In this document: in pieces, positions 6,126 to 45,566 of the stretch
How the letters are laid out: each line of letters opens with the position of its first letter
How positions within the stretch are numbered: the first letter of the stretch is position 1
NCBI GenBank assembly: GCA_964609245.1
Contig: CAZSSB010000003.1
Coordinates: 55,854-119,853, forward strand
Origin: an uncultured Planctomycetales bacterium
GTDB lineage: Bacteria; 4484-113; JAFGCY01
Length of the DNA: 64,000 bases
Reading direction: 5' to 3'
Position numbers and translations under genes: made by a program
The notes under the pieces: generated by a model
Seen by the model: the letters and a program-made list of their open reading frames with translations, nothing else
Told to the model about the DNA's origin: nothing
Database searches by the model: none

Positions 6126-6165
6126 ACAGGCGGTCCCGTGCTCAGCAGGGAGCGGGGCCGCCTGT
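6126..6165. terminator. GC-rich hairpin between convergent genes
   Basis: ACAGGCGGTCCCG...CGGGGCCGCCTGT inverted repeat between stops at 6100 (+) and 6225 (-). Confidence 0.6.
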
Positions 6166-6224
6166 GGTGTATCTTGGGGAGATCCTTGGGACAGGCTACG
6201 CGGCTGAGCAGCGGTTAGCCCCGG

Positions 6225-6845
6225 TCAGATGCTGGAAGCACCGACCGGCGGCAGCATTTCCTCCAGGCGGTGGAATTCGGGTGGGCGGGCGCCCAAGCGG
6301 TCCAGTTCCGTCAGCGTGCGGTAGCAGCGATCGTACAGGGCGGCCTTCAGCTCTACCTTGAGCTTGAGCGTCCAGATGCCGGGGTCGTTGGTTTCGTAGC
6401 AGACGGCGCGGGCGAGGTGCTGGGCTGCCGGCATGTAGGCGCCCTCACGTGCCGCCGTCAGGGCGTGATTGTAGAGCTCCTGGGCGCGCCGGCGGTCGCG
6501 GTGCCGTGCCTCGAGCTCCGCGCGGACTTCCGCCGCCACCACCGGGCTTAAGTCTGCCAGCAGAGCCTCGGCGCCCGGGGTGTTGCCTTCCAGCATCAGC
6601 AGGCGAGCCGTCAACGCGTTGAGTTCGGCGCTGTCTATCTCGCCCAGCTGTGGCAGCCGCTCAACGATCTGGCGCGCCGCCGGAAGTTCACCGCGGCTGA
6701 GGAGTTCGCTGGCGAGATTCAGGTAGTTTGCGGACAGCATCGCAAGGTCGCGGTAAGGTGACAGGTCCGCCCCGCAGCCGGGACACTGCACCGAGTCCTT
6801 GCTCAGCACCGTCCGGCACAGCGGGCAGGCGTCCAGTTCCTGCAC
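6225..6845 (-). CDS. Zinc-ribbon + TPR-like protein
   Basis: N-terminal CPLC-x10-CPGC; helical TPR-like segments (AQELYNHALTAAREGAY...); begins 3 nt after the Hsp70 stop. Confidence 0.75.
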   Translation of the reverse strand: MQELDACPLCRTVLSKDSVQCPGCGADLSPYRDLAMLSANYLNLASELLSRGELPAARQIVERLPQLGEIDSAELNALTARLLMLEGNTPGAEALLADLSPVVAAEVRAELEARHRDRRRAQELYNHALTAAREGAYMPAAQHLARAVCYETNDPGIWTLKLKVELKAALYDRCYRTLTELDRLGARPPEFHRLEEMLPPVGASSI

Positions 6846-6848
6846 GAT

Positions 6849-8594
6849 CTAGAGTCCCCAGTCTGACAGGTAGTTTCCAACCTTGTCGATAAGCTTCTCG
6901 AGCCCTTCCTCGTCTTCTTCCTTGATCGAGGCTTCCAGCTCTTCCATCATCGAGCGCAGCATCCCCAGCTGCAATTCGTCCATCTTCTTGGCGCCGTCGG
7001 CCGCCTGCTTCTCCAGCGTCTTGGCGCGTTCATAGACGCCCTGAGCTTCGAACAGCGCCTTGCCCTTCTCACGCTGCGCGATCAGCATGCCGCTCATCTG
7101 GGAGACGTCGCGCTCCGCCAGTGAGATGTCGTCCTCGGTCAGACGCGCCTTGGAGGCCTTGATGGTGATCCCCTGTCCAACTCCGGTCTGACGGTCGCGG
7201 GCCGTGACCTTCACGATACCGTTGACGTCGTAGTCGAAGCTGACCTCGACGAGTGATTCGCCGGCGCCGCCGTAGGTGATGCCGCTGAGCACGAACTCGC
7301 CGAGGCTGGCGTTCTCCGTGGCCGCCATGCTCTCGCCCTGAAGCACGTGAATCAGCGCCTCTGTCTGCCCGTCGATCGTGGTCTTGTACAGCTGCTTGCG
7401 TGAGCACGGGACGCTGGTGTTGCGCGGGATGATCGGGCTGAACTTGCCGCCCTCGGTTTCGATGCCCAGCGTAAACGGCGCAACGTCGACTACGACGAGC
7501 TCGTCCAGCTTGCCGCGCTTGATTCCGGCCTGAATGCTGGCCCCCAGCGCCACGCACTCCTCCGGGTTGATGTCGTGGTACGGTTCCTTGTTGGTGATGT
7601 TCTTCACCAACCGCTGCACGGCCGGCGTGCGGGTCATACCGCCGACCAGGATGACGGCGTCGAGATTGTCCGGATCCATATTGGCGTCGGACAGCGCCAG
7701 CTCCATCGGCTGCAGCGTCTGGTCAATCAGGTCCTGGACCAGGTCCTCGTACTTGGCGCGCGTGAGCGTCTCGTTGAGGTGCAGCGGTTCGTCGCCGCCG
7801 GTGTAGATGAACGGCAGATTGATGTTGGTCTCCAGCAGCGATGACAGGTCGATCTTGGCGTTCTCGGCAGCCTCCTTGAGCCGCTGCATGATCGCGCGCT
7901 GCTGGCTGATGTCGGAGATCGTGCGCAGATCGACCTTCTCCTTCTCCTTGAAGCGCTCGATCAGCCACTCCACCACGCGGTAGTCGAAGTCGTCGCCGCC
8001 GAGGTTGTTGTTGCCGGTGGTGGCGAGCACTTTGAACGCGCCCTCGACCAGCCGGATCACACTGACATCGAAGGTCCCGCCGCCCAGGTCGTAAACCATG
8101 ATCGTGCGGCTCTCGCCCTTGTCGAAGCCGTAGACCAGCGCCGCGGCGGTGGGCTCGTTGATGATCCGCTCCACCTTGAAACCGGCGACTTCACCGGCGT
8201 CCTTGGTTGCCTGCCGCTGGGAGTCCGTGAAGTAGGCCGGGACCGTGATGATCGCCTCGTCGACGATGTCGTTAAGGTAGGTTTCGGCGTCGAGCTTGAG
8301 CTTCTTGAGAATGACGGCGCTGATCTCCTGGGGACTGAATTCCTTGTCCCCAACGGTAATGCGCCGGTCGGTACCCATCAGCCGCTTGACGCTGGTGATG
8401 GTACGCTCGGGATTGGCCACCGCCTGGTTCTTGGCGACCTCGCCGACCAGCAGCTCACCGGTCTCCGTAAAGCCGACCACCGACGGAGTGACGAACTTGC
8501 CCCGCTCATTGGGGATTAGCGTCGGCTGGCCGTCGATGATGGCGGCAACCAGTGAATTGGTCGTGCCCAGGTCAATTCCAACAATCTGGCCCAT
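6849..8594 (-). CDS. dnaK: Hsp70/DnaK-family chaperone with a divergent substrate-binding domain
   Basis: GIDLGTTNS, TVPAYF, INEPTAAAL, YDLGGGTFDVS, LGGDDFD, LVGGMTRTP motifs; 581 aa, no acidic DnaK tail. Confidence 0.9.
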   Translation of the reverse strand: MGQIVGIDLGTTNSLVAAIIDGQPTLIPNERGKFVTPSVVGFTETGELLVGEVAKNQAVANPERTITSVKRLMGTDRRITVGDKEFSPQEISAVILKKLKLDAETYLNDIVDEAIITVPAYFTDSQRQATKDAGEVAGFKVERIINEPTAAALVYGFDKGESRTIMVYDLGGGTFDVSVIRLVEGAFKVLATTGNNNLGGDDFDYRVVEWLIERFKEKEKVDLRTISDISQQRAIMQRLKEAAENAKIDLSSLLETNINLPFIYTGGDEPLHLNETLTRAKYEDLVQDLIDQTLQPMELALSDANMDPDNLDAVILVGGMTRTPAVQRLVKNITNKEPYHDINPEECVALGASIQAGIKRGKLDELVVVDVAPFTLGIETEGGKFSPIIPRNTSVPCSRKQLYKTTIDGQTEALIHVLQGESMAATENASLGEFVLSGITYGGAGESLVEVSFDYDVNGIVKVTARDRQTGVGQGITIKASKARLTEDDISLAERDVSQMSGMLIAQREKGKALFEAQGVYERAKTLEKQAADGAKKMDELQLGMLRSMMEELEASIKEEDEEGLEKLIDKVGNYLSDWGL

Positions 8595-25762: not shown

Positions 25763-26347
25763 CTAGCCGCCCAGTCCGGCGAAGCCCTGAAAGGCCATCG
25801 CGACGATGCCCGCGATGACCAGGGCGATCGGCACACCCTCCATTGCCTTGGGCACCTCCATCAGTTCCATCCTCTCGCGGATGCCGGCGAAGATCACAAT
25901 CGCCAGGATGAAGCCGATCGCCGAGCCGAAGGCGAACAGCAGCGCGACCGGGTAGTTGTATTCGTTCTGGATCGCCAGCAGCGCCACGCCCAGGATTGCG
26001 CAGTTGGTGGTGATCAGCGGCAGGTAGATTCCCAGCGCGTCGAACAGGCCCTTGGCCACCTTGCGCAGCACGATCTCGACCAGCTGGACCAGTGAGGCGA
26101 TCACCAGAATGAAGGCCAGCGTACGCAGATAGCCCAGGTCGAGCGGGACGAGCACCAGATGGTAGATCGGCCAGGTCACGGCGACGGCCAGCGTCATCAC
26201 GAAGGTGACTGCGAAGCCCATGCCCAGGGCGGTGTCCAGCTTCTTGGAGACACCCAGGTAGGGGCAGATCCCCAGGAACTGCTGGAAGATGACGTTGTTG
26301 ACCAGGATCGCTCCCAGTACCAGCATCAGGATCTCTGCTACGCCCAT
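25763..26347 (-). CDS. rnfA: Rnf electron transport complex subunit A
   Basis: [29 protein letters not shown]. Confidence 0.96.
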
Positions 26348-27003
26348 TACGCCGCACCTCCCTTGGCCAGCCGCGCCTCACGCTCGCGCGACTTTCTCAG
26401 CTCCTCTTGTCGCTGGGTGATTGCGTTCATGCCGGCGATCAGCAGCCCCAGCGTGATGAACGCTCCCGGTGGCAGGATCATGATGATCCAGGGGTGGGCG
26501 GTGAAGGGCGGGACCGGAAACCCCAGCCAGGTGCCGTTGCCCAGAATCTCACGGACGGTGCCGACGGCCACGAGCGCGAAGGTGAAGCCGATTCCCATCC
26601 CCAGCGCGTCGATCATCGACATGAAGATGCCGTTCTTCGAGGCGAAGGCCTCGGCGCGTCCCAGGATGATGCAGTTGACCACGATCAGCGGCACGAAGAC
26701 CCCCAGGCTCTTGCTAAGCTCGAAGAAGAAGCCTTGCAGCACCAGGTCGACGATGGTGACGAAGGCCGCGATCACCACGATGAAGCACGGGATGCGCATC
26801 CGCGGCGGGATGATCTTGCGCAGCAGGCTGACCACGATGTTGCTGCACAGCAGCACGAAGGTCGCCGCCGCCCCCATCCCCAGTCCGTTCTCGACGCTGG
26901 TGGTGACCGCCAGCACCGGGCAGAGCCCCAGCAGCAGCCTGAGGACCGGGTTGTCCTTCCATATTCCCTTCATGAACTCAGCGGAGACGCTGCTAGTTGC
27001 CAC
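26347..27003 (-). CDS. rnfE: Rnf electron transport complex subunit E
   Basis: GTG 27003 after GGAGG; [41 protein letters not shown]. Confidence 0.96.
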
Positions 27004-27814
27004 TTCCCACCTCCTCGGCGGCAGGTGCCTCTGCCGCGTCCGGCTCCATGGTTTCCTCCGCGACCGCCAACTCCTCTTCGGCCGCCATGGTTGGGGCTGC
27101 CTCGGTCGCACCCGGCTGCTCAGCGGTGTCCGTGGGCCGTGACGCGAACTCCTTGATGCCGCCGGCGGACTCGAACGCCCCGATACCCTGGCTCAGCGCG
27201 CTGCAGACGGCGCGGCTGGTGATCGTCGCGCCGGTAACCGCGTCGATCTCGCCGCCGTCCTTGGCGACCATGAAGCTGTAGTCAAGCGGCTTGCCGTCGA
27301 ACTGGTCGATATAGGGCGACTCGGCCGCCTTGCTGCCGAGGCCCGGCGTTTCGGCGCTTTCCAGCACGCGCACGCGCTCAATCGTGCCGTCGGGCGCGAT
27401 GCCGAAGACGATCGAGAAGTAGCCGGAGTAGCCAGTCTTGACCGCGCTGGTCATCCCGAAGCCCGAGGCCGCGCCCTCGTGCTCGCCGACGTACAGCCTG
27501 ACGTCCTCGCTCAGTTCCTGCTCAGTCGCCAGGATGTCGTTGCCGAAGGCCGGCATCACCTGGGTCAGCTTGTCCTGCTTGTCCTTGCGCTTGGCCTCGG
27601 CGATCGGCTCCTCCGTGACGGCGTAGACCATCGCCAGCAGCAGCCCCATCACGGCGGCGATCAGGACGGGCGGCAGCATGATCAGCGGGCTGATTGTGGC
27701 GGCTCCGCTGCTCTGCGCCAGCGCCTCGCCGATCTGCTCGCGCGCCTCGCTGATCTCCTCGTGCTCCGGTGGCTGCACGCTTCTCTGCTGCTCTTGCTCA
27801 GGCACTGGCCTCAC
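26993..27814 (-). CDS. rnfG: Rnf electron transport complex subunit G
   Basis: TM anchor, GYSG, ETPGLGS, IDAVTGATITSRAV FMN-binding motif. Confidence 0.95.
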   Translation of the reverse strand: MRPVPEQEQQRSVQPPEHEEISEAREQIGEALAQSSGAATISPLIMLPPVLIAAVMGLLLAMVYAVTEEPIAEAKRKDKQDKLTQVMPAFGNDILATEQELSEDVRLYVGEHEGAASGFGMTSAVKTGYSGYFSIVFGIAPDGTIERVRVLESAETPGLGSKAAESPYIDQFDGKPLDYSFMVAKDGGEIDAVTGATITSRAVCSALSQGIGAFESAGGIKEFASRPTDTAEQPGATEAAPTMAAEEELAVAEETMEPDAAEAPAAEEVGSGN

Positions 27815-28859
27815 CTCGCAGTACTGTCTCCGCGCCGAACTTGCGCGGCTTGGTATAGCGGTCGATCAGCGGCGTCAGGCCGTTCATGATCAGGATCGCG
27901 AAGCTGACGCCCTCGGGGAACGATCCGAACAGGCGGATCAGCGCCGTGATCAGCCCGCAGCCGATGCCGAAGATGATCATGCCCTTGGCGCTGACCGGAC
28001 TGGTCACCATGTCTGTCGCCATGAAGAATGCGCCGAGGATCAGGCCGGCGCTGAGTACGTGCAGGATGGGATTGGCGTAGTAGTTGGGATTGACCAGCCA
28101 CATGATGCCGGTCAGCACGAACACGGTGACAACATACGTGACCGGCACGTGCCAGCTGATGTAGCCGCGCCAGAACAGCAGTCCCGCGCCGATCAGCAGC
28201 AGCAGCGCGCTGGTTTCGCCCAGACTGCCGCCGGTGTTGCCGATCAGCATCGACCACAGCGAGGTCCCGCTCTGGGCCATCCAGTCCAGGAACGCCTGCA
28301 GGCCATCGCTCTTGATCATGCCCAGCGGGGTGGCGCCGGTCACCGCGTCGAGATTGTCCGCGGCGAGGCTGGGCAGGTCCATGAACTGCGCACCGCTTCT
28401 CGGGTAAAGCCACGTGGTCATCTCCGCCGGGAACGCCAGGAGCAGGAACACCCGAGCTACCAGCGCCGGGTTGAAGATGTTCTGGCCCAGCCCGCCGAAC
28501 AGGTGCTTGCCGAGCAGCATCGCCACCAGCGCGCCGATCAGAACCAGCCACCACGGCGATGTGGCCGGCAGGTTCAGCGCCAGCAGCACTCCGGTCACCA
28601 CCGCGCTGCCGTCCAGCGACATGCTCATCGCCTTGCGGGCATCGATGCGCAGCCTGAGTAGTACGTATTCGAAGACCACGCAGCCGATCGTCGCGCCGAC
28701 GATCACCAGCAGCGCCCGCAGCCCGAAGAACCAGCAGGCGGCCAGCATCGCGGGCGCCAGCGACAGCACCACCGTCCACATTACGTGCGGCACCTGCTCG
28801 CTGCCCAGCGCGTGCGGGCTCGACCTCAGTACCGCCGATTCAACCTTCACGTCAGCCAA
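27798..28859 (-). CDS. rnfD: Rnf electron transport complex subunit D
   Basis: SSPH, DGSAVVTGVLLA, FGGLGQNIFNPALVAR, DAVTGATPL FMN site, GSLGETS, FFMATD. Confidence 0.96.
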   Translation of the reverse strand: MADVKVESAVLRSSPHALGSEQVPHVMWTVVLSLAPAMLAACWFFGLRALLVIVGATIGCVVFEYVLLRLRIDARKAMSMSLDGSAVVTGVLLALNLPATSPWWLVLIGALVAMLLGKHLFGGLGQNIFNPALVARVFLLLAFPAEMTTWLYPRSGAQFMDLPSLAADNLDAVTGATPLGMIKSDGLQAFLDWMAQSGTSLWSMLIGNTGGSLGETSALLLLIGAGLLFWRGYISWHVPVTYVVTVFVLTGIMWLVNPNYYANPILHVLSAGLILGAFFMATDMVTSPVSAKGMIIFGIGCGLITALIRLFGSFPEGVSFAILIMNGLTPLIDRYTKPRKFGAETVLRGEASA

Positions 28860-28868
28860 TACAACCCC

Positions 28869-30242
28869 CTAACTCTTCGCCGCCTCGGCTTCCTGTTGTT
28901 TCTGCTTCGCCTGCGCGCGCCGGCGCATCCGGTTCAGTTCCCACTTCGCCAGCCTGATCCAGTGAACCAGGCGGCGGTTGCTGGGGCAGATGTAGGCGCA
29001 GGTGCCGCATTCGATGCAGTCCAGCGCGTCGGTGGCTTCCTCGAAGCGGCCACGCATCGCCAGGCCCATCAGCTCCGTCGGCACGAGACCCATCGGGCAG
29101 CCGGCCACGCAGCGCCCGCAGCGGATACAGGGATCTTCCTCGGGCAGCCGGACTTCATCCGGCGCGAGGAACAGGATGCCGCTGGTGGCCTTGGTGGTCG
29201 GCTCCGTGATGTCGCTGGTGGCACGGCCCATCATCGGCCCGCCCATCACCACCTCGGCGACGTCACCCTTCAGCCCGCCGCAGAAGTCGAGCAGCGTTTT
29301 GACGCTGGTGCCCATCGGCACCAGCACGTTCTGCGGACGGGCCACCGCGTGGCCCGAGACGGTCACCAGCCGCCGCATCAGCGGACGGTCGTACTGCAGC
29401 GCCTCGTATACGGCCGCGGCGGTCGCGACGTTCTGCACCACGACGCCGACGCTGAAGGGCAGCTTGCCCGGCGGGACGCGGCGGCCGACCGCGGCTTCGA
29501 TCAACTGCTTCTCCGAGCCCTGTGGATAGCGCGTTCTGCAGCGCAGGATCTCGATGCCGGGCAGTCCCTCGGCGGCCGCGCTCATCACCGCGAACGACTG
29601 CGGCTTGTTGTCCTCGATCCCGATGTAAGCGCGCTCGATGCCGGCCGACTTCATCAGCGCCCGCGTACCCTCCAGCACCTGCACGGGATGATTGCGCATC
29701 AGGCAGTCGTCGGCGGTCAGGTAGGGTTCGCACTCCGCGCCGTTGATGATCAGCACGTCGAGAGTGACGCCCGGCGGCGGGCTGAGCTTGACGTGCGTCG
29801 GAAACGCCGCGCCGCCCATGCCCACCAGTCCGGCATCCTTGATCTTGTCGATGATCTGTTTGGCCTCAAGGCCAGCCAGATCGAGCGGCGGCGGGTTGTG
29901 CTCATAGCCGACCACCGGCTCGGCGTCGTCGGCGGGCTTGATCACCACCGACGGGCTGTTGACCGGTCCGATGTGGACCTTGTCCTGCGAGCGCACCACG
30001 CCCTTGAGGGGCGTATGGATGTTGGCGGAGACGAACCCGCCGGCCTCGGCGATCAGCTGGCCGGCCTTCACCTCATCGCGGTTCTTGACCACCGCCTTGG
30101 CCGGGGCGCCGAGGTGCTGACTCAGTGCGATCACCAGCTGCTCGGGATTGGGCAGGACGCTGTAGGTACTGGGATCACACAGCTCCTTGTGCTCCGGCGG
30201 ATGCGTGCCGCCGCGTCTGAAGGTCGCTCCCCTGCCACTCAT
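28869..30242 (-). CDS. rnfC: Rnf electron transport complex subunit C
   Basis: GLVGMGGAAFPTHVKL, NGAECEPYLTAD, YPQGSEKQLI, CIRCGRCVAGCP, CIECGTCAYICP. Start ATG 30242 or GTG 30245. Confidence 0.96.
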   Translation of the reverse strand: MSGRGATFRRGGTHPPEHKELCDPSTYSVLPNPEQLVIALSQHLGAPAKAVVKNRDEVKAGQLIAEAGGFVSANIHTPLKGVVRSQDKVHIGPVNSPSVVIKPADDAEPVVGYEHNPPPLDLAGLEAKQIIDKIKDAGLVGMGGAAFPTHVKLSPPPGVTLDVLIINGAECEPYLTADDCLMRNHPVQVLEGTRALMKSAGIERAYIGIEDNKPQSFAVMSAAAEGLPGIEILRCRTRYPQGSEKQLIEAAVGRRVPPGKLPFSVGVVVQNVATAAAVYEALQYDRPLMRRLVTVSGHAVARPQNVLVPMGTSVKTLLDFCGGLKGDVAEVVMGGPMMGRATSDITEPTTKATSGILFLAPDEVRLPEEDPCIRCGRCVAGCPMGLVPTELMGLAMRGRFEEATDALDCIECGTCAYICPSNRRLVHWIRLAKWELNRMRRRAQAKQKQQEAEAAKS

Positions 30243-31543
30243 CACTGCGCCTCCTCACCGGTCTGGCTACCGGCGATCTCCGCCGGATCGTGTTCGGCCG
30301 CCTTTGACGCCGGGTCGAGCGCGGCCAGTTTGGCCTTGAATCCCGCCTCGATCTTGGGCAGCCGCTTGGCGTATTCCGGATCATTCTCGGCCTTGGCCCG
30401 GGCATCGTCCAATGCCTGCTGGATCTTCTGCCGCTTGGCCTCCAGCTCCGGATCGACCGCCGGTGCCGCGCCCGGCGGCGGACCAAGCTCCTCCAGTTTC
30501 TTAAGGAAGCCCGCTTCGATCTTGGGTAGTTTCTTGGCGTACTCGGGATCGGCGGCCGCCTTGGCGCGGGCGTCGTCCAGTCCCTGCTGGAACTTGGCGC
30601 GCTTGGCGGCGGTCTCGGGGTCTTCACCGCCGGCCGCCAACTCCGCCTGCCGCTGCTTCTCGGCCTCGGCCTTCTCGCGGGCGCGCTCCGTCCACAGCGC
30701 CTCGGCGATGGTGTCGAAGCCCTGCTTCAGGTCCTCCTCGGTGACCATGAACTCCGCCAGATCACGGACCTTGATGAGGTGGCGCGGGCAGGCCACCACG
30801 CACTCGTAGCACTGCGTGCACTTCTCGTAGTTGATTTCCGCCAGGTTGTCATTGAACCAGATCGCGTCGCTGGGGCAGACCTTGACGCATTTCTGGCAGC
30901 CGATGCAGCCGATCTCGCAGACCTTGCTGACCACCTTGCCGCTGTCCAGGCTCTTGCAGGGGATGAACACCTGCCGCCCCTTGGGGATCATCACGATCAG
31001 CTCGCGCGGGCAGGCCTCCACGCACTTGCCGCAGGCCACGCAGTTCTCGGGGATGATCCGCGCGACGTGGTTGTAGATCTCGATCGCGTCGAACGCGCAG
31101 GCTTCGACACAGGTTCCCATCCCGATGCAGCCGTAGGAGCAGACGCGGTCGACCTGGCCCACCAGATGGGCGGCCCGGCAGTCGTTGATGCCTTGATACA
31201 GGCCGTTGAAGCTGGCGCTGCTCTGCAGGCCCTCGCACATCACGTGCGCGACAACCGGTTCCGCATCCGCCAGCTGTTTTCCCAGCAGCCGCGCGATCTC
31301 GGCCATCGCGTCCTGGCTGCAGACCGGACAGGTGCCGTCCTCGCCGGCTACCAGGGCCTCGGCGAAGGCCTTGCAGCCCGCCTTGCCACAGCCACCGCAG
31401 TTGGCGCCGGGCAATAGCTCCTCGACCTGACCGATGCGCGGGTCCTCGTAGACGTAGAACTTCTTGGCCGCCAGGAGCAGTGCCAGAGAAAGGAGCAGCC
31501 CCAGGCCGCCCATCACGCCCGCCGGTATCAATACTTCGATCAT
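30242..31543 (-). CDS. rnfB: Rnf electron transport complex subunit B with a duplicated helical C-terminal extension
   Basis: ATG 31543 (MIEVLIP); LPGANCGGCG, CSYGCIGMGTCVEAC, multiple CxxCxxCxxxCP; ~150 aa charged tail. Confidence 0.94.
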   Translation of the reverse strand: MIEVLIPAGVMGGLGLLLSLALLLAAKKFYVYEDPRIGQVEELLPGANCGGCGKAGCKAFAEALVAGEDGTCPVCSQDAMAEIARLLGKQLADAEPVVAHVMCEGLQSSASFNGLYQGINDCRAAHLVGQVDRVCSYGCIGMGTCVEACAFDAIEIYNHVARIIPENCVACGKCVEACPRELIVMIPKGRQVFIPCKSLDSGKVVSKVCEIGCIGCQKCVKVCPSDAIWFNDNLAEINYEKCTQCYECVVACPRHLIKVRDLAEFMVTEEDLKQGFDTIAEALWTERAREKAEAEKQRQAELAAGGEDPETAAKRAKFQQGLDDARAKAAADPEYAKKLPKIEAGFLKKLEELGPPPGAAPAVDPELEAKRQKIQQALDDARAKAENDPEYAKRLPKIEAGFKAKLAALDPASKAAEHDPAEIAGSQTGEEAQ

Positions 31544-31547
31544 AAGC

Positions 31548-32057
31548 TCACTCGATCTTGTCCAGATGTATCTCGAGTCCACCGTCCCTGGATGCCACCT
31601 TGTACAGGTGCACGAACGCCAGGCTGATTCCGATCCCCGCCGCGACGCCGATCAGGCTGCCGATGTTGCCGTCGATGCCCAGAAAGGCCTCGGCCACCGC
31701 GAAGCCGGCGAACGAACCCACCAGCACCAGGAGCGCCGGGATCAGGTAGAGCACAAATGACGCTCTTACCACCGCCGCCGCGAAGGTGGTGATCCGTACC
31801 CGGTCCCCGACGCTGAACCCGCTCGCTTGCACTTCCAGCTGCCGGCCACCGAGTTCCGCTACGTGGCAGGACTGCCGTGTCTGACAGGCGTCACAGGCGG
31901 TCGGAGTGGCGACCTCGACCACCACCACCGATTCCCGAACTGCCACAACGCGTCCCTCGCAGGAGGACTGGGCACGCTCGGCGCCCGCGCCGTCTGGCGC
32001 CTGGTCATCCGGATTCCGTCTGCTCATGGCTGCTCGGTCCAGTTCCATGCGCCTCAT
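31548..32057 (-). CDS. rseC: SoxR reducing system RseC family protein
   Basis: EGRVVAV, CDACQTRQSC, VGDRVRI, SFVLYLIP plus 2 TM; first gene of the rnf operon. Confidence 0.85.
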   Translation of the reverse strand: MRRMELDRAAMSRRNPDDQAPDGAGAERAQSSCEGRVVAVRESVVVVEVATPTACDACQTRQSCHVAELGGRQLEVQASGFSVGDRVRITTFAAAVVRASFVLYLIPALLVLVGSFAGFAVAEAFLGIDGNIGSLIGVAAGIGISLAFVHLYKVASRDGGLEIHLDKIE

Positions 32058-35850: not shown

Positions 35851-36690
35851 CTATTGTAGCGCCTGCGGGGCATGTCCGGGCTTGTCTGCAACGGCCTCGC
35901 CAAACTCCGCCGGCGGTCGCCTGCCGGCGTGCCACAGCACTGCGCCGGCTGCCGCCATCAGCACGATCACCACGACGCGGTAGGCATCGGGTTTCTCCGG
36001 AGCGGTGTTGGCGACGAACCAGAGCAGGAAGATGCACACGACGTACATGGTGCAGGTGCCCATGTGCCACATGAAGCCCTCTTTGCGGCGCAGCAGCACC
36101 AGCCACTGGACGAGCATCGCCAGCAGCACTGCCAGTGCCAGCCAGGAGCCCAGGACGGGTCCGTAGTACGTCCAGTTGCGGCTGATCAGGAAGTAGGTCC
36201 CCGGCAGCAGGTGCGGAACGAGGTTCAGCACCTCAAAGGCCGCGAGCGGGAGGATCAGCAGCCCCAGCGTCCAGCCCAGGGACTGCCGGATGACGTTCGA
36301 GCGTACGGCGGCATAGATGGCTGAGGGCGGGTAGGCGACGAGCAACTCAGGTGGCACCGTCAGGTGCAGCGAATGGTGGATCGCGGCGGCGGCGGCGCCA
36401 AAGACCGCCAGCAGGGCGCTGAACGGCTGCGAGATGAGCGCGGGCTCGAGGAAGCCTCCGGGCGAGCCGTACCACGGCCGGGGTGGCCCGCCTCAACCCC
36501 CGCCGGGGCAGCCGATGCCGAAGGCGCTGAGCACGTTCCAGCCGGTGGCGACGGCCAGCAGCAGCACCGGCAGCCAGACCGCGGCGATCAGCAGCAGCGC
36601 CGGCCAGCGGTAGCGCCGCCACCAGTCGTGCTGCCTGGCCGCCAGCTGGCGCCGCAGTGGCGCAAGCCCGCTGTCAGCCCGCCGTCGCAC
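35851..36690 (-). CDS. Multi-pass membrane protein with an in-frame TGA at 36495-36493 (candidate selenocysteine, residue 66 of 279)
   Basis: Track ORFs 36493..36690 and 35851..36357 are in the same frame (333 nt apart). Reading through gives ...FGIGCPGGG*GGPPRPWYGSPGGFLEPALISQPFSALLAVFGAAAAAIHHSLHLTVPPELL... with no other stop. TACAAT lies 7 nt before GTG 36690. Confidence 0.75.
36459..36490 (-). promoter_or_regulatory. SECIS-like hairpin directly 3' of the in-frame UGA
   Basis: mRNA: UGA GG CGGGC CACCCC G GCCGU GGU ACGGC U C GCCCG; lower stem CGGGC/GCCCG, upper stem GCCGU/ACGGC, loop GGU 19 nt after UGA. Confidence 0.6.
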
Positions 36691-36732
36691 AGTTGGGATT
36701 GTACCCCCATCTCAGGAGCCGCCGCGCCACTG

Positions 36733-38121
36733 CTACTGCTCCCAGCTCAGCGTGGTGTAGTCGAAGGTCTCGATCTCGTCGACCAGCTGCTGGATCCTGC
36801 CGCCAAACGCCTGCTGCTCGAGCAGGGTGTCATCATGCAGCTTCTCGAGGTAGATCAGTGAGAAGCTGCCGCTGCCGGTCAGCAGACTCTCCGCGTACAG
36901 TGGCCAGTACTGGCGGGGGGGCAGCTGGCCCGCCAGATACAGCGTGGACGGGCTGCCGATAGCTCTGAGCTTGGCTCGCAGCCGGTCCTTCTTTGCCTCC
37001 AACTCGTCCAACGCCTTGCGCGCCTCCACGCTGAGAGGCTCGGGCCACTGATCTTTGACAGCCTGAAGTGGCAGGACGATCAGCACGCAGCCGAGCAGGG
37101 CCTGGATCAGGGTGGTTCCTTCTGCGCTGCCAAAACGGCATCCAAACGTGTGGAGTTCGTCCAGAGCGGCCAGGTCCTGGCGTTCAATCGCCTCGGCGAT
37201 CAGCAGCTTGGCTGTGTCCTTGACCATGATGAAGTCGGGGAGCGCCAGCATGAGGGAATGCTCGCACAATCTGCCGCTGACGAGCTTGTCGTTCAGTGGC
37301 CGGCCGGCGCGCATGCCGCCCCATAGTTCGTCGAAGGGGAATCCGGTCAAGGACGTGTTGCGAGGCGCTGCATTGCCCTGACGAAGCTTGTCCACGGCGG
37401 CATCGTAGTTACCGCGCTCGGTCTCATACATCGCTGCGTAGTAGTAAGGCAGTGCTTCGTCCGGCGCAGCGGCGAACAGCTCGGAGAGCAGCAGCTTGTA
37501 CTCGGTGCCGCGGTACTGGTCCACTGCCGCTCGGCGCGCCTGCAGGTACGGTGCCTTGGTCTCGTCGCGATGTTGCGGTGGAGTGACCGCCACATACTGA
37601 TTCGTCGCCTCTCGCCAGGCCCGGTCGCAGGCGCGCAGCAGTCGCAGCAGCACTGCACCGTCGACCGCGCCGCGGCGCCGCGCCTCTTCCAGGTAGCGGG
37701 CACGTGGATCGAGATCGACTTCCGCCCACTCGCTGGAATAGCCTTCCGTCGAGCACCTCGCGAAGTGGTAGCAGAGCATCCAGTAGCGTGGATCGTCCCC
37801 GAATTCCACCTCCCATTCGGCGAGCACGCCCTCACAGATACCTCGGGCATCCGTGGGCATGCCCCACGGGGACAGCGCTGGATCACTCTTGCTGGCGGCG
37901 ATCGTGCCAAGGAGCCTGTCCAGCAAAGGATCGCCGGTGGAGGCGCTCGGCGGAACAGCCGTATAGACCGTCACCAGCAGCGCGCACCAGGCGAGGACGG
38001 GCGCCACGATCAGCGCCAACCAGACGCCGCGCCCCTCCGCCAGCCAGGGCTGCCTTGCAGCTGCATGGGCGTCGGGGCTGCCGCTATCCCGCTCCCGGCT
38101 GCTGTGCTGAGTGTCCGCCAC
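36733..38121 (-). CDS. Membrane-anchored helical/TPR-like hypothetical protein
   Basis: GTG 38121 overlaps the upstream TAG; one TM (VWLALIVAPVLAWCALLVTV); APDEALPYYYAAMYETERGNYDAAVDKL TPR-like segment. Confidence 0.7.
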   Translation of the reverse strand: MADTQHSSRERDSGSPDAHAAARQPWLAEGRGVWLALIVAPVLAWCALLVTVYTAVPPSASTGDPLLDRLLGTIAASKSDPALSPWGMPTDARGICEGVLAEWEVEFGDDPRYWMLCYHFARCSTEGYSSEWAEVDLDPRARYLEEARRRGAVDGAVLLRLLRACDRAWREATNQYVAVTPPQHRDETKAPYLQARRAAVDQYRGTEYKLLLSELFAAAPDEALPYYYAAMYETERGNYDAAVDKLRQGNAAPRNTSLTGFPFDELWGGMRAGRPLNDKLVSGRLCEHSLMLALPDFIMVKDTAKLLIAEAIERQDLAALDELHTFGCRFGSAEGTTLIQALLGCVLIVLPLQAVKDQWPEPLSVEARKALDELEAKKDRLRAKLRAIGSPSTLYLAGQLPPRQYWPLYAESLLTGSGSFSLIYLEKLHDDTLLEQQAFGGRIQQLVDEIETFDYTTLSWEQ

Positions 38122-39326
38122 TACTCCCCCTTCAGCCCCCACTTGCGGCGGCGGATGGCGTCGCGGGCGAACTCGGCGCAGCCCCAGAGCAGGATCAGCT
38201 GCATTGCCAGCAGGATGCCCATCTGCCACCAGCTGCCTGTGATTTCGGGATCGGCATGGTGGCTGAAGGACGCCAGCGAGGTTGCCTCCGCGGGCATCGG
38301 CGCGATGACAGCAAGGCACTGCAGCACCCAGGCAAAACCTACGGTGATCGGCTCCATCCAGAACAGCAGGTCATCACCGAGCGCGAAGGCTCCGAAGACC
38401 AGCATGGCGATGGCGGCCAGCACCAGCGGGAACGCCCAGGCCAGGGCTGCGCGCATCCAGTCCAGCCGCCGCGCCAGATAGAGCAGCAGCCCGACGGTCA
38501 GCACCGTCAGCGTGCCGTACATGACGGCGGCCATCGCGTCGAACTCCTCGCCCTGCATGCCGCGGGAGGCGAATACGGCGTAGAACACGCCGCCCAGCAG
38601 CGCCAGCTGCATCAGCAGCTGCAGCGCCGCCCCGACGCTGGGCATCATGCCGGCCCGCGGCACCAGCCCCACGCTCACCATCAGATAGGTCAGGGCCAGC
38701 ACCGCCAGCGCCCCGCCCAGCACCACGTAGGCCAGCACCAGCAGTGCGGAGCCGAGCGTGTCCAGCGCGCCGCCCAGCGATGCTGGCAGTCCGGTGCGCA
38801 GCACATTTGCACTGACGCGCAGCACGCTGAGCAGCAGCAGTGGCGGCAGTGCCAGTCGCAGGCTGTGCAGGCCGAGCCCGACCAGCGTCTCCTGCTCGCT
38901 GAGCGCCGAGACCGCCAGCATGTCGTCGAGCGTCTGTCTGAGCTGCTGGCGCGGCTGCTTCTCCAGAAAACCCAGCGCCAGCTGCGCGATGGTGTAGAAG
39001 CGACCCAGCAGCCAGGCCCCGGCGAAGATGGTCGCGCCGACCACCAGCAGCCCAGTGCCCGTCCGGACCGCCATGTGGGCATAGCCCGGGCCGTTCTCCG
39101 GCGCCAGCACCTCAAGCGTGAACAGAACCAACCGGATGGTCAGGCCGAGCGAGATCAGGGCCAGCAGGATCAGCAGGCCCAGGTTGCGCTTCCACCAGGC
39201 CACCGTGCTCAGCCGGTGCCGCTCGGCGCGCAGCCAGTAAGCGGCCAGCGGGTTGTGGCGGATGGAGAGCCACGCTTGAGCCCAGCTGCCGCCGATATCG
39301 AGCAGGTGACGTGAAATCGCACTCAT
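38121..39326 (-). CDS. Polytopic membrane protein (ABC-2 permease-like N-terminus)
   Basis: HNPLAAYWLRAE N-terminal motif, about 9 hydrophobic segments. Confidence 0.65.
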   Translation of the reverse strand: MSAISRHLLDIGGSWAQAWLSIRHNPLAAYWLRAERHRLSTVAWWKRNLGLLILLALISLGLTIRLVLFTLEVLAPENGPGYAHMAVRTGTGLLVVGATIFAGAWLLGRFYTIAQLALGFLEKQPRQQLRQTLDDMLAVSALSEQETLVGLGLHSLRLALPPLLLLSVLRVSANVLRTGLPASLGGALDTLGSALLVLAYVVLGGALAVLALTYLMVSVGLVPRAGMMPSVGAALQLLMQLALLGGVFYAVFASRGMQGEEFDAMAAVMYGTLTVLTVGLLLYLARRLDWMRAALAWAFPLVLAAIAMLVFGAFALGDDLLFWMEPITVGFAWVLQCLAVIAPMPAEATSLASFSHHADPEITGSWWQMGILLAMQLILLWGCAEFARDAIRRRKWGLKGE

Positions 39327-40044: not shown

Positions 40045-41040
<996 letters not shown>

Positions 41041-41119
41041 GCCCGGCCTGGGTCCAAGCGGAACACGGGGGAGCCGCGCGGCGTCCAGAGCATAGCCTGC
41101 GGTTATCATTAACCAGCGC

Positions 41120-42376
41120 GTGTTCTCGAAGTTCACGATCAATTCGGTTGTCCTGCTGGCGTTGACGGTGTTCAGCGTCGCGGTTGCGGCGATCTACCGC
41201 AATCCGCTGGTGGTCTACACGGCGGTATTCCTGGTCGTGACCAACATCGCGCTGTTCACCTGGGCGCAGCTCAGTGTCGCCGGGCTGACCATCAGGCGGC
41301 GCCATCCGCGTTTCGGCGTGGCCACGCAGCCGACGGAGATTACGATCGAGCTGGTCAACGAGCGGCGCTCACCGCGCTACGGCACCCTTGGCTTCGACGT
41401 CCACGCCCAGCTGACCCCCGGCCAGGACTACACGCCGGTGGCGTTTCTCGATGCGCCACCCCAGCAGCCGGTACTGGCCGACTACACCCTGGTGCCGCAG
41501 CGCCGGGGGGTGTTCCGCATCGGTCCGTTCTACCTGTACGGCGGCGATCCGTTTGGCTTCTACAAGTGCTGGTCGCGGCGTGAGCAGTACAGCGACCTGA
41601 CCGTGCTGCCCTGCCCGGTGGCGTTCAGTTTCCGGCGGCCGGCCAGTATCTCGCAGCTCAAGCAGGACGAAGTCGAGACGGTCCCGCTCAGCGGCGACAG
41701 CACGGAGTTTCTGGGCGTTCGCGACTACGTTGAGGGCGAGCCCCTCAAGCGCGTGCATTGGCGGACCAGCGCGCGCATCGGCCGCTTGATCAGTCGCCAG
41801 TACGAACTCAACGTCGCCGCCTCGCTCAGCGCGCTGGTGCTGGTTGATGAGCCGATGCTGACGGGTACACGCGTGGACAGCCCGCTGGAATACAGCCTGA
41901 CGATGGTGGCCAGCCTGGGCTACGCCACGGTCAGCGAGAATTTCCACTTCAACTACCTGGCGGTGATGGGGGATCAGCACGATATCTGCGCGGGCACCGG
42001 CCGCGGCTTCTACGAGGAGCTCGCGGTGCGGCTGGCGAATCTCAACCAACTCGGTCCCGTCGACTGGGAGAGCCAGGGCCGCGTGGTGCTCAACTACCTG
42101 CCGGCGGGCTCCCACCTGATCGTGTTCACGGCGGACCTGGGCGGCAAGACGCGCGAGCGGCTGCGCCAGCTGGCGACCCGCTTTCGCGGCCTGACGGCGG
42201 TGACGTTCAACCTCGACAGCTTCAAGCACGCGCGGGCGTCGCAGCACGCTGGTCCGCAGTTGGTCCTGGGCGAGGGCTACCTGGTACTTGAGGTTTCCTA
42301 TCGCGATGAGCTGTCGGCCGTACTGGCCCAGTGCCTGAGTGCGCCGGCGATGATCGGGAGGCAGCGATGGGCCTGA
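41120..42376 (+). CDS. DUF58 domain protein
   Basis: RRGVFRIGP...GDPFG, EFLGVRDYVEGEPLKRVHWRTSAR; follows MoxR. Confidence 0.92.
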   Translation: MFSKFTINSVVLLALTVFSVAVAAIYRNPLVVYTAVFLVVTNIALFTWAQLSVAGLTIRRRHPRFGVATQPTEITIELVNERRSPRYGTLGFDVHAQLTPGQDYTPVAFLDAPPQQPVLADYTLVPQRRGVFRIGPFYLYGGDPFGFYKCWSRREQYSDLTVLPCPVAFSFRRPASISQLKQDEVETVPLSGDSTEFLGVRDYVEGEPLKRVHWRTSARIGRLISRQYELNVAASLSALVLVDEPMLTGTRVDSPLEYSLTMVASLGYATVSENFHFNYLAVMGDQHDICAGTGRGFYEELAVRLANLNQLGPVDWESQGRVVLNYLPAGSHLIVFTADLGGKTRERLRQLATRFRGLTAVTFNLDSFKHARASQHAGPQLVLGEGYLVLEVSYRDELSAVLAQCLSAPAMIGRQRWA

Positions 42377-44820
42377 GGCGCAGCCGCCAGCGGCTGGCGG
42401 CGACGGCGGTGCTGGACGCCAACCCGCGGCAGCGGCTGCTGCTCTACCTCTTCGGCTACCTGGCAGCGCTGACCGCACTGCTGATCCTCCACCTCGCGCT
42501 GGACAATCTCAACCTGACCCTTGGGCTGGTGGGCGCGCTGACGGCGGGCTACGTCTACAGCTACTTCCTGGCGCCGGTCTACCGCGCGATTACCACCTAC
42601 AGCATTTCACTGCTGGCCGCCGGCATCTCGGTGTCCTACTTCCTGAAGATCACCGCCAACCTCGCGCAGTACGGCAACTTCCTGGGCGTACTGCTGGGGA
42701 TCCTGACGGCCCTGCTGGCCTACAAGGCGTTCTCGCCCGCCGACCATCGCTTCATCCTGATGGTCTGCGTGATCTTCCTGCTGTTCAGCGGCGTGGCCAG
42801 CTACGACCTGAAGTTCATGGTGCTGCTGCCGCTGTTCCTGATCTTCGCGGGTGTGGCGCTGCACGTCGCCAACCAGATCGACGTGGCGGTGCGGGTCGCT
42901 GGCACGGCGAAGGAGCCGGCCGAAGTGCGCTTTCACGTCGGGCTGCAGTTCCTGGCCGTGCTGTTGCGCGCGATTCTGGGGCTGATCGGGTTGTCGATCG
43001 TCGCCTATGTGATCGCCCCGCATTCGGCGCAGGGGCCGCAGAACCGGGTGCTGACCAAGGCCCCGGAAGTCAGCAATCCCCTCAATGAGCAGGCGGATCT
43101 GACCGGCATGGGTGGGAGCCGCGAGAACCCCGATGAGGTGCAAATCGGCATCGGCAACGAGTTCGACTTGACCGATCAGCGGCGCCTGACCGCGGATCCG
43201 CGGCCGGTACTGCAGCTGAAGAGCCACCGCGCCGGGTATCTGCGAGCCCAGGTCTACGACGTCTACACGGGCAGCGGCTGGGTCAAATCCCCCCGCCTCG
43301 ACGAGAGAAAGGGCGGCAGCCAGATTCTGCGTGACCTCAGCGATATCAGCGAGAGCGGGCAGTTTCACGGCGACTTCTACAAGCTATATCTGGTGCCGCT
43401 GGTCGATTTCCCTTCCGAGGACTACGCCGAGGAGCTGGGACGGAAGCATGGTGTCACCATGGATCCTGAGAACGACTTCTCGGGCGACGAAGTCTCGGAT
43501 CTGAGCTACGACATCCTCCGTCAGGAAATCAAGCTGCTGGAACCGCAGCCACCGTTCTACTACGCGATGTACCAGCCGTTCAGGCTGGAGAATGTTTCCG
43601 AGACTGACGGCCGCGCGCAGCTGGATACCCCGCTGGTGGACGCGGCCTCGGTGGTGCGCCCGCTCTCTCTTGAGGTCATGCACCCGGTTAACTTCGCCTA
43701 CACCGTGTATTCGCTCGAGGTGCGCCCGAAGCCGGCGGCTCTCAGGCAGGTCGTCTCAGGCGGGCCGGCCGGAATCGTCAGGGATTACACCCAACTGCCA
43801 CTGGAGGAGCGCTACGATCCGCAGCTGCATCGCGATCAGCAGGGAATCGCCCGGGAGGAGTACCGCCCGATCAGCCGCCAGCTGGTGAACTTCGCGGGGC
43901 AGTTCTCCCAGCATCCGGCGGGCGTGGATCAGACCGGTCAATTGGTGCCGACCTACGACAAAGTCCAGGCGATCGTCAGCCACCTGCTCGACGAGGACGA
44001 AGGCTATCTCTACGACCGCGAGTTCACCCTGCTGGACAGTGACGCCGAACTGACGGAGGCCTTCGTGCTGGGGACCCGCCAGGGTTACTGCCGTTACTTC
44101 GCGAGTGCGATGGCAGTACTCTGCCGGCTCAACGGCATCCCCGCCCGCGTGGTCACCGGTTATGCACCGGGTTCGTTCAGCTTGATCGAGAACGCCTACA
44201 TCTATCGGGCGAGCAATGCTCACGCCTGGGTCGAGGTCTACTTCGACGGCTACGGCTGGATAATGTTTGACCCCACGCCCACCAGCCGTAGTCCGTACGG
44301 CGGGTCCGACGCCGCGCAGTGGCTGGGCGGGATCGTCGACTTCCTGCAGGATCTGTTCATCATCGACCCGGCCAGAACCCAGCAGATGATCGTCGGAGTG
44401 CTTGGAGACCTTTGGCGCCTGATCGTTGCCCACTGGCCACTGGCCGCGGTTGGCGCGCTGGCGCTGCTGGCGATCGGGGCACTGGTCTGGGCGATGCTGA
44501 GGCTGCGGTGGCGGAAGCGTTCCCGTCGGCTGACGGCGGAAAACCCGGTGGTGGCGGCCTACGACGGCGTCGCTCGCGAGCTCGCGCGCCTCGGATTCCC
44601 GCGCAGACCGGGGCAGACCGCCCGCAGCTATCTCGGTGGCGCGGGCGAGGAGCACGCCGTGCTGGCGGAGCCGCTGGCGCGGTTGGCACCGGCCTATGAG
44701 CGCGCGGCGTTCTCGGTGGGCGGGCCGACCGATGTCGATCTGCGGGTGGCGGCCGCCGCGCTGGCGGCGGTGGAGGACGCTGTCAGCGCCGAGCTGCAGC
44801 GGCGGAGGCGCAGCCGATGA
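42367..44820 (+). CDS. Membrane transglutaminase-like protein (TgpA/DUF3488 type)
   Basis: N-terminal TMs; YLRAQVYDVYTGSGW; GYCRYFASAMAVLCRLNGIPARVVTGY; AHAWVEVYFDGYGWIMFDPTP (C-H-D triad). Confidence 0.92.
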   Translation: MGLRRSRQRLAATAVLDANPRQRLLLYLFGYLAALTALLILHLALDNLNLTLGLVGALTAGYVYSYFLAPVYRAITTYSISLLAAGISVSYFLKITANLAQYGNFLGVLLGILTALLAYKAFSPADHRFILMVCVIFLLFSGVASYDLKFMVLLPLFLIFAGVALHVANQIDVAVRVAGTAKEPAEVRFHVGLQFLAVLLRAILGLIGLSIVAYVIAPHSAQGPQNRVLTKAPEVSNPLNEQADLTGMGGSRENPDEVQIGIGNEFDLTDQRRLTADPRPVLQLKSHRAGYLRAQVYDVYTGSGWVKSPRLDERKGGSQILRDLSDISESGQFHGDFYKLYLVPLVDFPSEDYAEELGRKHGVTMDPENDFSGDEVSDLSYDILRQEIKLLEPQPPFYYAMYQPFRLENVSETDGRAQLDTPLVDAASVVRPLSLEVMHPVNFAYTVYSLEVRPKPAALRQVVSGGPAGIVRDYTQLPLEERYDPQLHRDQQGIAREEYRPISRQLVNFAGQFSQHPAGVDQTGQLVPTYDKVQAIVSHLLDEDEGYLYDREFTLLDSDAELTEAFVLGTRQGYCRYFASAMAVLCRLNGIPARVVTGYAPGSFSLIENAYIYRASNAHAWVEVYFDGYGWIMFDPTPTSRSPYGGSDAAQWLGGIVDFLQDLFIIDPARTQQMIVGVLGDLWRLIVAHWPLAAVGALALLAIGALVWAMLRLRWRKRSRRLTAENPVVAAYDGVARELARLGFPRRPGQTARSYLGGAGEEHAVLAEPLARLAPAYERAAFSVGGPTDVDLRVAAAALAAVEDAVSAELQRRRRSR

Positions 44821-45566
44821 CCAGGCGCGTGATCTTCAACGCCGATGACTATGGCCTCAGCCCGGGCGTCAGCGCCGGCATCCTGGCGGCGGCCGAGGGC
44901 GTTGTGGGGTCAACTACGGTTATGGCCAATCTCGTCTCGCAGCTGGAGGCGGACTTCCTGCGCCGCAGCGGCGTGTCCGTGGGCGCGCACCTGACGATCA
45001 CGGTCGGTCTGCCGCTGAGCGACGAGTACCCGGAGGAGCTGCGGGGTCCTTACGGGGGCTTCAACAAGGAACTGGCGCTGGACGCGGCCACCTGGCGGGA
45101 CGATGCGCGGCGCGAGGCGGTGGAGCGCGAATGGCGCGCGCAGCTGCGCCGCCTGCGTGAACTGGGCTTCGAACTCGATCATCTCGACAGCCACCACCAT
45201 GCCCACCTGCTGGGCCCGCTGCTGCCGATCGCCGTCCAGCTGGCGCGCGAGCGCGGTCTGGCGCTGAGGACCCGGCCCGCGAAGGTCAGTCCGGTGCGGC
45301 GGGCGGGCGTGCTAACCCCCGATCTGCTGATCGAGGGATATTTCGGTATAACAAATGTAGGGATGGATCATCTGCTGGCCCTGCTGGATGCGGCAGATGG
45401 CGACGTGGTTGAAGTGATGTGCCATCCGGGGCGCGTTGACGGGCTGCTGAAGCTGCGTTCAGGCTATGTGGCGGAACGGGAGGCTGAGTTGGACGTGCTC
45501 AGTGATCCAAGGCTGAAACAGGAGGTCAGGCAGCGAGGATGGATACTTTCCGGCTACCGGTGGTAA
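44817..45566 (+). CDS. ChbG/HpnK (YdjC) family deacetylase
   Basis: IFNADDYG, GAHL, HLDSHHHAH, EVMCHPG, REAELDVL. Confidence 0.92.
   Translation: MTRRVIFNADDYGLSPGVSAGILAAAEGVVGSTTVMANLVSQLEADFLRRSGVSVGAHLTITVGLPLSDEYPEELRGPYGGFNKELALDAATWRDDARREAVEREWRAQLRRLRELGFELDHLDSHHHAHLLGPLLPIAVQLARERGLALRTRPAKVSPVRRAGVLTPDLLIEGYFGITNVGMDHLLALLDAADGDVVEVMCHPGRVDGLLKLRSGYVAEREAELDVLSDPRLKQEVRQRGWILSGYRW

Follow-up and report, generated by a model that had tools for sequence, protein, structure and literature searches.

A conserved in-frame UGA in a split membrane-protein gene points to a probable new bacterial selenoprotein family

The bacterial genes that carry an intragenic SECIS element, represented by E. 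coli fdhF and the factor SelB, are the closest described systems to the locus reported here. The fdhF element has G23/U24 in its apical loop, and its minimal helix lies 11 nt after the UGA. The present locus has in common with such genes an in-frame UGA in a conserved frame, a homologue with Cys in the UGA column, a predicted stem-loop that begins some 11 nt past the UGA and carries G/U near +23/+24 in its small apical loop, and the splitting or truncation of the gene by gene callers, as is described in the selenoprotein literature (PMC1088965, PMC12013277). It differs from them as follows: the protein family shows no sequence or domain relation to FdhF or to any other catalogued family, and the hairpin is short, varies in architecture among sub-lineages and lacks covariation.

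Among the membrane selenoproteins covered by a 2026 review are the MerT-like mercuric transport protein (PF02411), the YeeE/YedE-type sulfur transporter family (PF04143, GUxSG), the Rnf/Nqr subunit E type (PF02508) and the SO_0444 Cu/Zn efflux transporter, and NCBIfam models are given there for many catalogued selenoprotein families (PMC13188914). The family described here would likewise be polytopic with a single Sec. There is a further likeness in that some of the reviewed proteins hold their Sec in a Gly-flanked motif (GUxSG, GUxG) and not in a CxxU/UxxC pair, whereas the motif proposed here, [G/T]-U-G-[G/A]-P-[P/A/T]-x-P-W, is placed in an extracytoplasmic loop and the protein has no Pfam or NCBIfam match. 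A conserved TGA, TGA/Cys pairing, the lack of a known function and occurrence in few organisms are shared with the 'hypothetical' selenoproteins found in metagenomes only (Sargasso Sea/GOS; deep-Sep DG, DW and DF).

A UGA/Cys pair in a conserved frame is used as a criterion in the selenoprotein literature, and published pipelines accept a family only when it has two or more Cys homologues or when a Sec homologue is already known (PMC1088965, PMC12013277). Known families mostly have far more Cys forms than Sec forms (PMC1088965); this ratio is reversed in the present family, which has one Cys form among nine lineages.

A split reading frame and its relatives

The locus lies on the minus strand of the window, by which we mean the whole 64-kb stretch of DNA that was analysed. 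As read from the letters, a frame of 279 codons is open from the GTG at 36690-36688 to the TAG at 35853-35851, and its sole internal stop is a TGA at 36495-36493 (codon 66), in the context FGIGCPGGG-[TGA]-GGPPRPWYG. The complete recoded gene would thus occupy 35851..36690 on the minus strand, with a GTG start, one internal UGA and a TAG stop, and would encode a predicted six-helix membrane protein. Codons 1-65 (36496..36690, minus strand) comprise an Arg-rich N-terminus, predicted to be cytoplasmic and holding the motif Q[HR][DE]WWxR[YW]RW before TM1, then TM1 itself and the start of loop 1; they are present in the databases as a separate 65-aa protein, P0009. The proposed Sec codon follows (36493..36495, minus strand), and the candidate Sec-spanning stretch of the product would read ...GIGCPGGG-U-GGPPRPWYGSPGGF.... 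Codons 67-111 (36358..36492, minus strand) encode the rest of loop 1 (GGPPRPWYGSPGG...) and TM2. ATG, GTG and TTG are absent from these 45 codons, so that they could be translated only via read-through of the UGA. The first start after the TGA in the window is GTG 36357, upstream of which a purine-rich SD was looked for in the window sequence and none was found. It is the database start of P0001, a 168-aa 'hypothetical protein' that corresponds to codons 112-279 and the TAG (35851..36357, minus strand) and covers TM3-TM6 and the predicted cytoplasmic tail. The frame with its one TGA, the 45 start-less codons and the absence of an RBS at GTG 36357 had all been reported in a preliminary description of this DNA, and translation and inspection of the sequence bear them out. 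The annotation of two 'hypothetical proteins' of 65 aa and 168 aa, with an apparently non-coding 135 nt between them, should be replaced by that of one 279-aa product.

TGA junctions throughout the 64 kb were filtered for high-GC3 coding-like sequence on both sides and at least 12 start-less codons after the TGA. Three junctions passed, with start-less stretches of 45 codons at 36495-36493 against 31 and 16 at the other two, and only the one at 36495-36493 has long open frames on both sides. The open frame across this TGA is more than a chance occurrence. There is no convincing TGA junction for a second selenoprotein gene within the 64-kb window. A TGA at 2369-2371 (plus strand) stands between a 688-codon PKD-domain ORF and a 335-codon Kelch ORF in the same frame; a start codon occurs 7 codons after it, and the two ORFs are most simply taken as two adjacent genes.

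Six independent assemblies from different samples (L003-L008) contain these 840 nt without a single difference, which excludes the sequencing error that the preliminary description had envisaged. The stops of 41 confident window genes are distributed as 22 TAG, 17 TGA and 2 TAA, and TGA-G, the tetranucleotide of the recoded site, is the commonest form of the TGA stops (9 of 17). The M42 aminopeptidase gene, which begins 7 nt past the TAG stop, ends in TGA-G and gives a full-length Pfam match; a flavin reductase gene of the window is also TGA-terminated with a full-length Pfam match. Since UGA ends 17 of the 41 genes, nine of them as TGA-G, the code has not been reassigned and the context is not intrinsically leaky: UGA is an ordinary terminator here, which is at odds with a genome-wide reassignment (translation table 4 or 25). 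As a separate observation, TAG is the commonest stop in the window despite a G+C content of about 65%, although TGA is usually the dominant stop in high-GC bacteria.

A word-indexed search returned two relatives, and 1.84 billion representatives, scanned in full by HMMER with the 213 residues that follow the UGA as the query, yielded six clusters, all of which are annotated solely as the 'downstream half', of 125-196 aa. DNA was fetched for all relatives from both searches and for one more that was reached via the 65-aa N-terminal ORF. All eight lineages whose DNA covers the site (the window, L102, L001, L002, L009, L012, L017 and L018) have a TGA in one and the same alignment column, and identity to the window declines across them from 77% down to about 40%. 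Neither TAA nor TAG ever takes the place of this TGA, though TAG is the commonest stop in the window, and its in-frame flanks follow the pattern [G/T]-TGA-G-[G/A]-P-[P/A]-[R/Q/K]-P-W-[Y/L]. The three closest relatives are collinear with the window gene, also 840 nt long, and free of indels. In the relatives the upstream ORF is conserved as 64-67 codons with Q[HR][DE]WWxR[YW]RW followed by TM1.

Coding constraint extends over both sides of the UGA. Comparison of the three closest sequences gave dN/dS values of 0.22-0.37 for the N-terminal segment, 0.25-0.34 for the start-less one after the TGA and 0.28-0.36 for the C-terminal one. Variable sites by codon position number 10/10/24, 10/7/20 and 51/29/79 in the same three segments, so that the variation is third-position-biased in the minus-strand frame in every one of them. 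An antisense ORF at 36364-36861 was also considered as the source of selection and was rejected, as the codon-position pattern fits the minus frame. Identity to the distant relatives is 45-62% for codons 1-65, 36-53% for codons 67-111 and 33-41% for the remainder; at the sequence level, the segments adjacent to the UGA, namely the N-terminal one and the first extracytoplasmic loop, are the best-conserved part of the family. Moreover, the first start after the UGA, 45 codons away in the window, is at a different position in each lineage. The in-frame constraint together with these shifting first starts implies that the stretch after the UGA is translated, and solely by passing the UGA. Homologues ending at the UGA and an independent downstream start, both raised in the preliminary description as possible objections, are not borne out: the eight lineages keep the TGA with coding conserved on both sides, and no conserved start follows it across the lineages.

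A profile search with the family alignment yielded an uninterrupted homologue of 276 aa, P0012, which covers 96% of the query and originates from Logan assembly SRR33089659 (locus L103, 6693-7523). It reads ...EHAGGG-C-GAPTRPWLTSPGDYW..., its codon 68 being a TGT (Cys) in the UGA column. P0012 is 71% identical to the TGA-bearing L018 protein and groups with it inside the TGA clade of the family tree, and the simplest history would be an ancestral UGA with one change to Cys. L103 and the TGA lineages would make up a classic Sec/Cys pair, as judged from the aligned sequences, and the alignment of Cys and Sec at position 66 that the preliminary description had suggested as a check thus gives TGA in eight lineages and Cys in L103. 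The Cys homologue is one sequence on one contig among nine lineages, and since two of the eight sense codons one step from TGA encode Cys, Cys would be reached one time in four by chance.

The family is tiny and is found in metagenome assemblies only, and the database entries for its TGA forms are split or truncated. No family member was found when JGI metagenome contigs and GTDB genomes were scanned with the close-relative alignment; a scan with a four-sequence alignment re-found L012 and L013 and nothing else. Likewise, tblastn found no family member in 80 GTDB loci that had been reached via the M42 peptidase. The nearest GTDB genomes by M42 peptidase are the unclassified MAGs L020 (Zod_Metabat.1143, 78%) and L021 (SJ870, 65%); both are without the family gene at the M42 peptidase locus, and in L020 no family gene occupies the position upstream of the peptidase gene. 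A further entry, P0013 (103 aa, on a 660-nt ENA contig), is 82% identical to the window protein from residue ~202 on, whereas its N-terminus is unrelated; the entry probably represents a truncated copy or a chimera produced during assembly.

The stem-loop downstream of the UGA

The bacterial SECIS was tested for as a 3' stem-loop with a small apical loop that contains G (GU) at about 16-37 nt from the UGA. The RNA directly 3' of the UGA can be folded into a SECIS-like 48-nt stem-loop (36448..36494, minus strand) with an apical hairpin at 36478-36466, in which the stem GCCGU/ACGGC encloses a GGU loop at 36473-36471, that is, +23..+25 when the U of UGA is counted as 1. The fold thus reproduces the GGU loop with its first G at position 23 that had been described earlier. 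The single-sequence MFE is -34.6 kcal/mol with z = -0.73, and 52 of 200 dinucleotide shuffles fold at least as well. As the hairpin is no better than shuffles and the genome has 65% G+C, the hairpin alone proves nothing.

Comparison among the lineages gives a somewhat different view of the same place. Three hairpin architectures are found there: GCCGU[GGU]ACGGC in the window group, CAGC[CGUG]GCUG in L009, L012 and L017, and a 7-bp GCCCGGC/GCCGGGC stem with a 13-nt loop in L018. In every lineage a distance of 10-13 nt separates the UGA from the hairpin, whose loop holds a GU at about +21..+25, and the energy of the local hairpin at +10..+42 lies between -9.7 and -18 kcal/mol. Under a strict rule, six of seven lineages have a GU-loop hairpin centred at +20..+27, and all seven have one when loops of up to 14 nt are allowed; of 255 columns, only the UGA column and its neighbour, which sees the same hairpin, reach at least six of seven lineages, by a hairpin criterion that was framed after the sequences had been seen. 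When the columns are ordered by how consistently low the plain MFE of +10..+42 is, the UGA column is third among 257.

When the region was re-coded synonymously with the codon usage of the gene, an equal or better hairpin was obtained in 0.2-32% of trials depending on the lineage (p = 0.002-0.32), so this resampling is only suggestive. RNAalifold returned a four-pair CCAC/GUGG helix with no covariation, and Rfam gave no SECIS or other credible match. Of the SECIS-like hairpin put forward in the preliminary description, the geometry thus recurs in all lineages, while the hairpin is not statistically exceptional on its own and does not covary. Taken together, the SECIS evidence is compatible with the Sec reading and mildly supportive of it, not decisive, and we infer that the hairpin may serve as the SECIS.

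Predicted topology and genomic neighbourhood

An AF2 model built from a shallow alignment has six long helices (pLDDT 72, pTM 0.64). The N-terminus, the tail and loops 2 and 4 together contain 17 Lys and Arg residues, against 3 in loops 1, 3 and 5; under the positive-inside rule, such a distribution puts the two termini inside and residue 66 outside. The protein would accordingly have six helices with both ends in the cytoplasm and residue 66 in its first outward loop. The polytopic protein with an outward-facing loop after TM1 that the preliminary description had proposed is therefore supported by both the charge bias and the six-helix model. The loop that holds residue 66 (residues 60-87) is Gly-rich and of low confidence in the AF2 model (pLDDT < 50), and could equally be a linker.

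Family searches gave no assignment. With Pfam, the window protein matched only DUF3792 at E = 0.029, below its cut-off, and P0012 had no match; among the NCBIfam models, none matched the window protein below E = 0.03 and none matched the Cys form. None of the catalogued selenoprotein families, including the selenoprotein-specific NF04xxxx models, matches either of the two proteins. Foldseek against the PDB returned no significant match (best E = 0.21, TM-scores 0.32-0.45). The top non-significant matches are ABC-2-type permease domains (LptF/G, NosY, CcmB; TM 0.32-0.45, E at least 0.2, identity 13-17%), which have in common with the predicted protein six helices, a cytoplasmic N-terminal helix and an extracytoplasmic TM1-TM2 loop, but differ in that no ABC ATPase gene is adjacent to the family gene. 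Membership of the ABC-2-type permeases was rejected; it is a resemblance only, with no significant structural match.

No Cys is conserved in the family, and no motif of the CxxU/UxxC type is found in it. The pairing of Cys61 with the Sec as a C-x4-U motif, which the preliminary description had suggested, was dropped because Cys61 is replaced by Ser in the closest relatives and is absent from the others. This lack of a conserved redox-partner Cys counts against the Sec reading.

A -10-like box, TACAAT, is read from the sequence at 36698..36703 (minus strand), 7 nt upstream of the GTG start, exactly where it had been noted before. GGTACAAT at the start box of the window is also kept in L001, L002 and L102, and TAGAAT (L009) and TATCAT (L012) occur 6-7 nt before the respective starts, so that six of eight lineages carry a TANNAT box at this distance from the start codon; in L018 and L103 its place is taken by a GGAGG-type SD. 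This arrangement suggests a leaderless or nearly leaderless mRNA. A consensus scan for a complete sigma-70 promoter found none, so the leaderless mRNA is offered here as a lead.

The M42 peptidase gene follows the family gene in the window and in the P0004 lineage. In L012-L017, ferredoxin genes are located downstream, and the L012-L014 contigs also carry 2-oxoacid:ferredoxin oxidoreductase genes beside them. Genes for ATP-citrate lyase, a citrate synthase-like protein and aconitase are near the family gene in L103, those of ATP-citrate lyase and aconitase being upstream on the opposite strand. In these distant lineages the family gene thus adjoins genes for low-potential electron carriers or carbon fixation; in the window, an rseC-rnfBCDGEA cluster (25763-32057) lies ~4 kb from it. 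These rnf genes, together with kdtA, dnaK/dnaJ/hrcA and a large number of proteins in the window that belong to no family, are in keeping with an anaerobic Gram-negative bacterium of a poorly known lineage.

Two genes are found upstream on the same strand, encoding a 462-aa protein that ends in ...FDYTTLSWEQ (36733-38121) and a 401-aa membrane protein (38121-39326), and no Pfam family was found for either protein. Tandem paralogues of the 462-aa protein (...FDYATLSWPE) are encoded at 6143-7537 and 7539-8882 of L020, directly before the M42 peptidase gene and with no selenoprotein gene between. Further along the window, on the plus strand, a cluster of a MoxR-type AAA ATPase, a DUF58-like protein, a TgpA transglutaminase-like membrane protein and YdjC (40045-45566) is followed by a gene for a 1370-aa fn3-containing protein.

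Decoding of the UGA

The retention of the UGA in eight lineages and the presence of Cys in a ninth indicate that the locus very probably encodes a previously undescribed selenocysteine protein. We consider it probable that the gene represents a new selenoprotein family, in which an integral membrane protein carries Sec in its first outward loop and is split in two in every database. The 279-aa polytopic selenoprotein of the preliminary description is thus upheld by the conserved TGA, the coding constraint on both sides, the Cys homologue and the lack of a downstream start. Against the Sec reading count the absence of tRNA-Sec, selA, selB and selD from the 64-kb window and from every fetched locus, and that of a recognisable second selenoprotein gene from the window.

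The proposed mechanism would proceed as follows. The interval 36690-35851 (minus strand) would be one gene for a 279-residue inner-membrane protein, in which the UGA at codon 66 is decoded as selenocysteine. Translation would start at GTG 36690, probably on a leaderless mRNA, and the ribosome would encounter the UGA after TM1. There, the stem-loop, with its beginning ~10-12 nt downstream and GU in its apical loop at about +21 to +25, could recruit SelB with Sec-tRNA(Sec); after insertion of Sec, translation would continue through GGPPRPW..., TM2-TM6 and the tail. The selenol would thereby be placed in the Gly/Pro-rich first extracytoplasmic loop. The inserted residue would be Sec, or Cys delivered by the same SelB route, and residue 66 may be catalytic or ligand-binding; our best guess is a putative outward-facing nucleophile that handles a chalcogen, metal or thiol substrate. 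Such a mechanism is of a known kind; what is new is the family itself, the preponderance of Sec forms in it and the absence of a redox-pair motif.

The alternative that survives best is a programmed read-through without Sec, in which a near-cognate tRNA (Trp or Cys) would inefficiently decode a leaky UGA, giving an abundant 65-aa single-helix peptide and little of the 279-aa fusion, with the Gly-rich stretch as a linker. UGA is the leakiest stop codon in bacteria, and here it lies within GGG-x-GG in a loop of low pLDDT; the missing partner Cys and the weak RNA structure evidence would also suit this alternative, as would the lack of Sec genes in the window and the fetched loci. On the other hand, TGA-G is the commonest ending of the TGA-terminated genes, which argues against an intrinsically leaky context; the sole sense replacement is Cys and not Gly, Arg or Trp; and the residues around the UGA are the best-conserved in the protein, unlike those of a linker. 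In addition, conserved non-Sec read-through in cellular bacterial genes is, to our knowledge, essentially undocumented. We regard this explanation as improbable.

Still less probable are two genes, in which a 65-aa membrane peptide would be followed by a five-helix protein that is reinitiated at a non-canonical codon just after the stop. All gene callers do split the gene at the UGA, and a weak SD-like GAGG can be read within UGAGG. Nevertheless, the window has no ATG, GTG or TTG for 45 codons and the nearest starts differ by lineage, every lineage retains in frame the residues right after the stop site (G-[GA]-P-[PAT]-x-P-W), a stop at this site is TGA in each case in spite of the preference of the genome for TAG, and L103 encodes both halves as one uninterrupted protein. 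An artefact or decay, be it a sequencing error, a pseudogene or UGA as a sense codon (table 4 or 25), is effectively refuted and hardly credible, for although long chance open frames arise in high-GC genomes and the hairpin is unexceptional as a single sequence, the DNA is identical in six assemblies, purifying selection acts on both sides of the UGA across nine lineages, and TGA closes 17 of 41 genes, among them that of the M42 peptidase, 7 nt downstream.

The selenoprotein reading, if correct, would lengthen by one family the short list of bacterial selenoproteins that are embedded in a membrane. The ratio of Sec to Cys forms in it is 8 to 1, and with one Cys form among nine lineages the standard filters, which ask for at least two Cys homologues, would miss the family; this suggests that similar Sec-dominant families remain hidden in metagenomes. 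A more tentative extension, which we think rather unlikely, is that the family is an almost obligate Sec integral membrane protein with a lone selenol in an outward Gly/Pro loop and no partner Cys. Under this extension, the UGA might in addition let the supply of selenium decide whether the 65-aa single-helix peptide or the six-helix protein is made. If this were true, it would represent an undescribed kind of selenium chemistry at the outer face of the cytoplasmic membrane, for example the capture or transfer of chalcogen or metal species.
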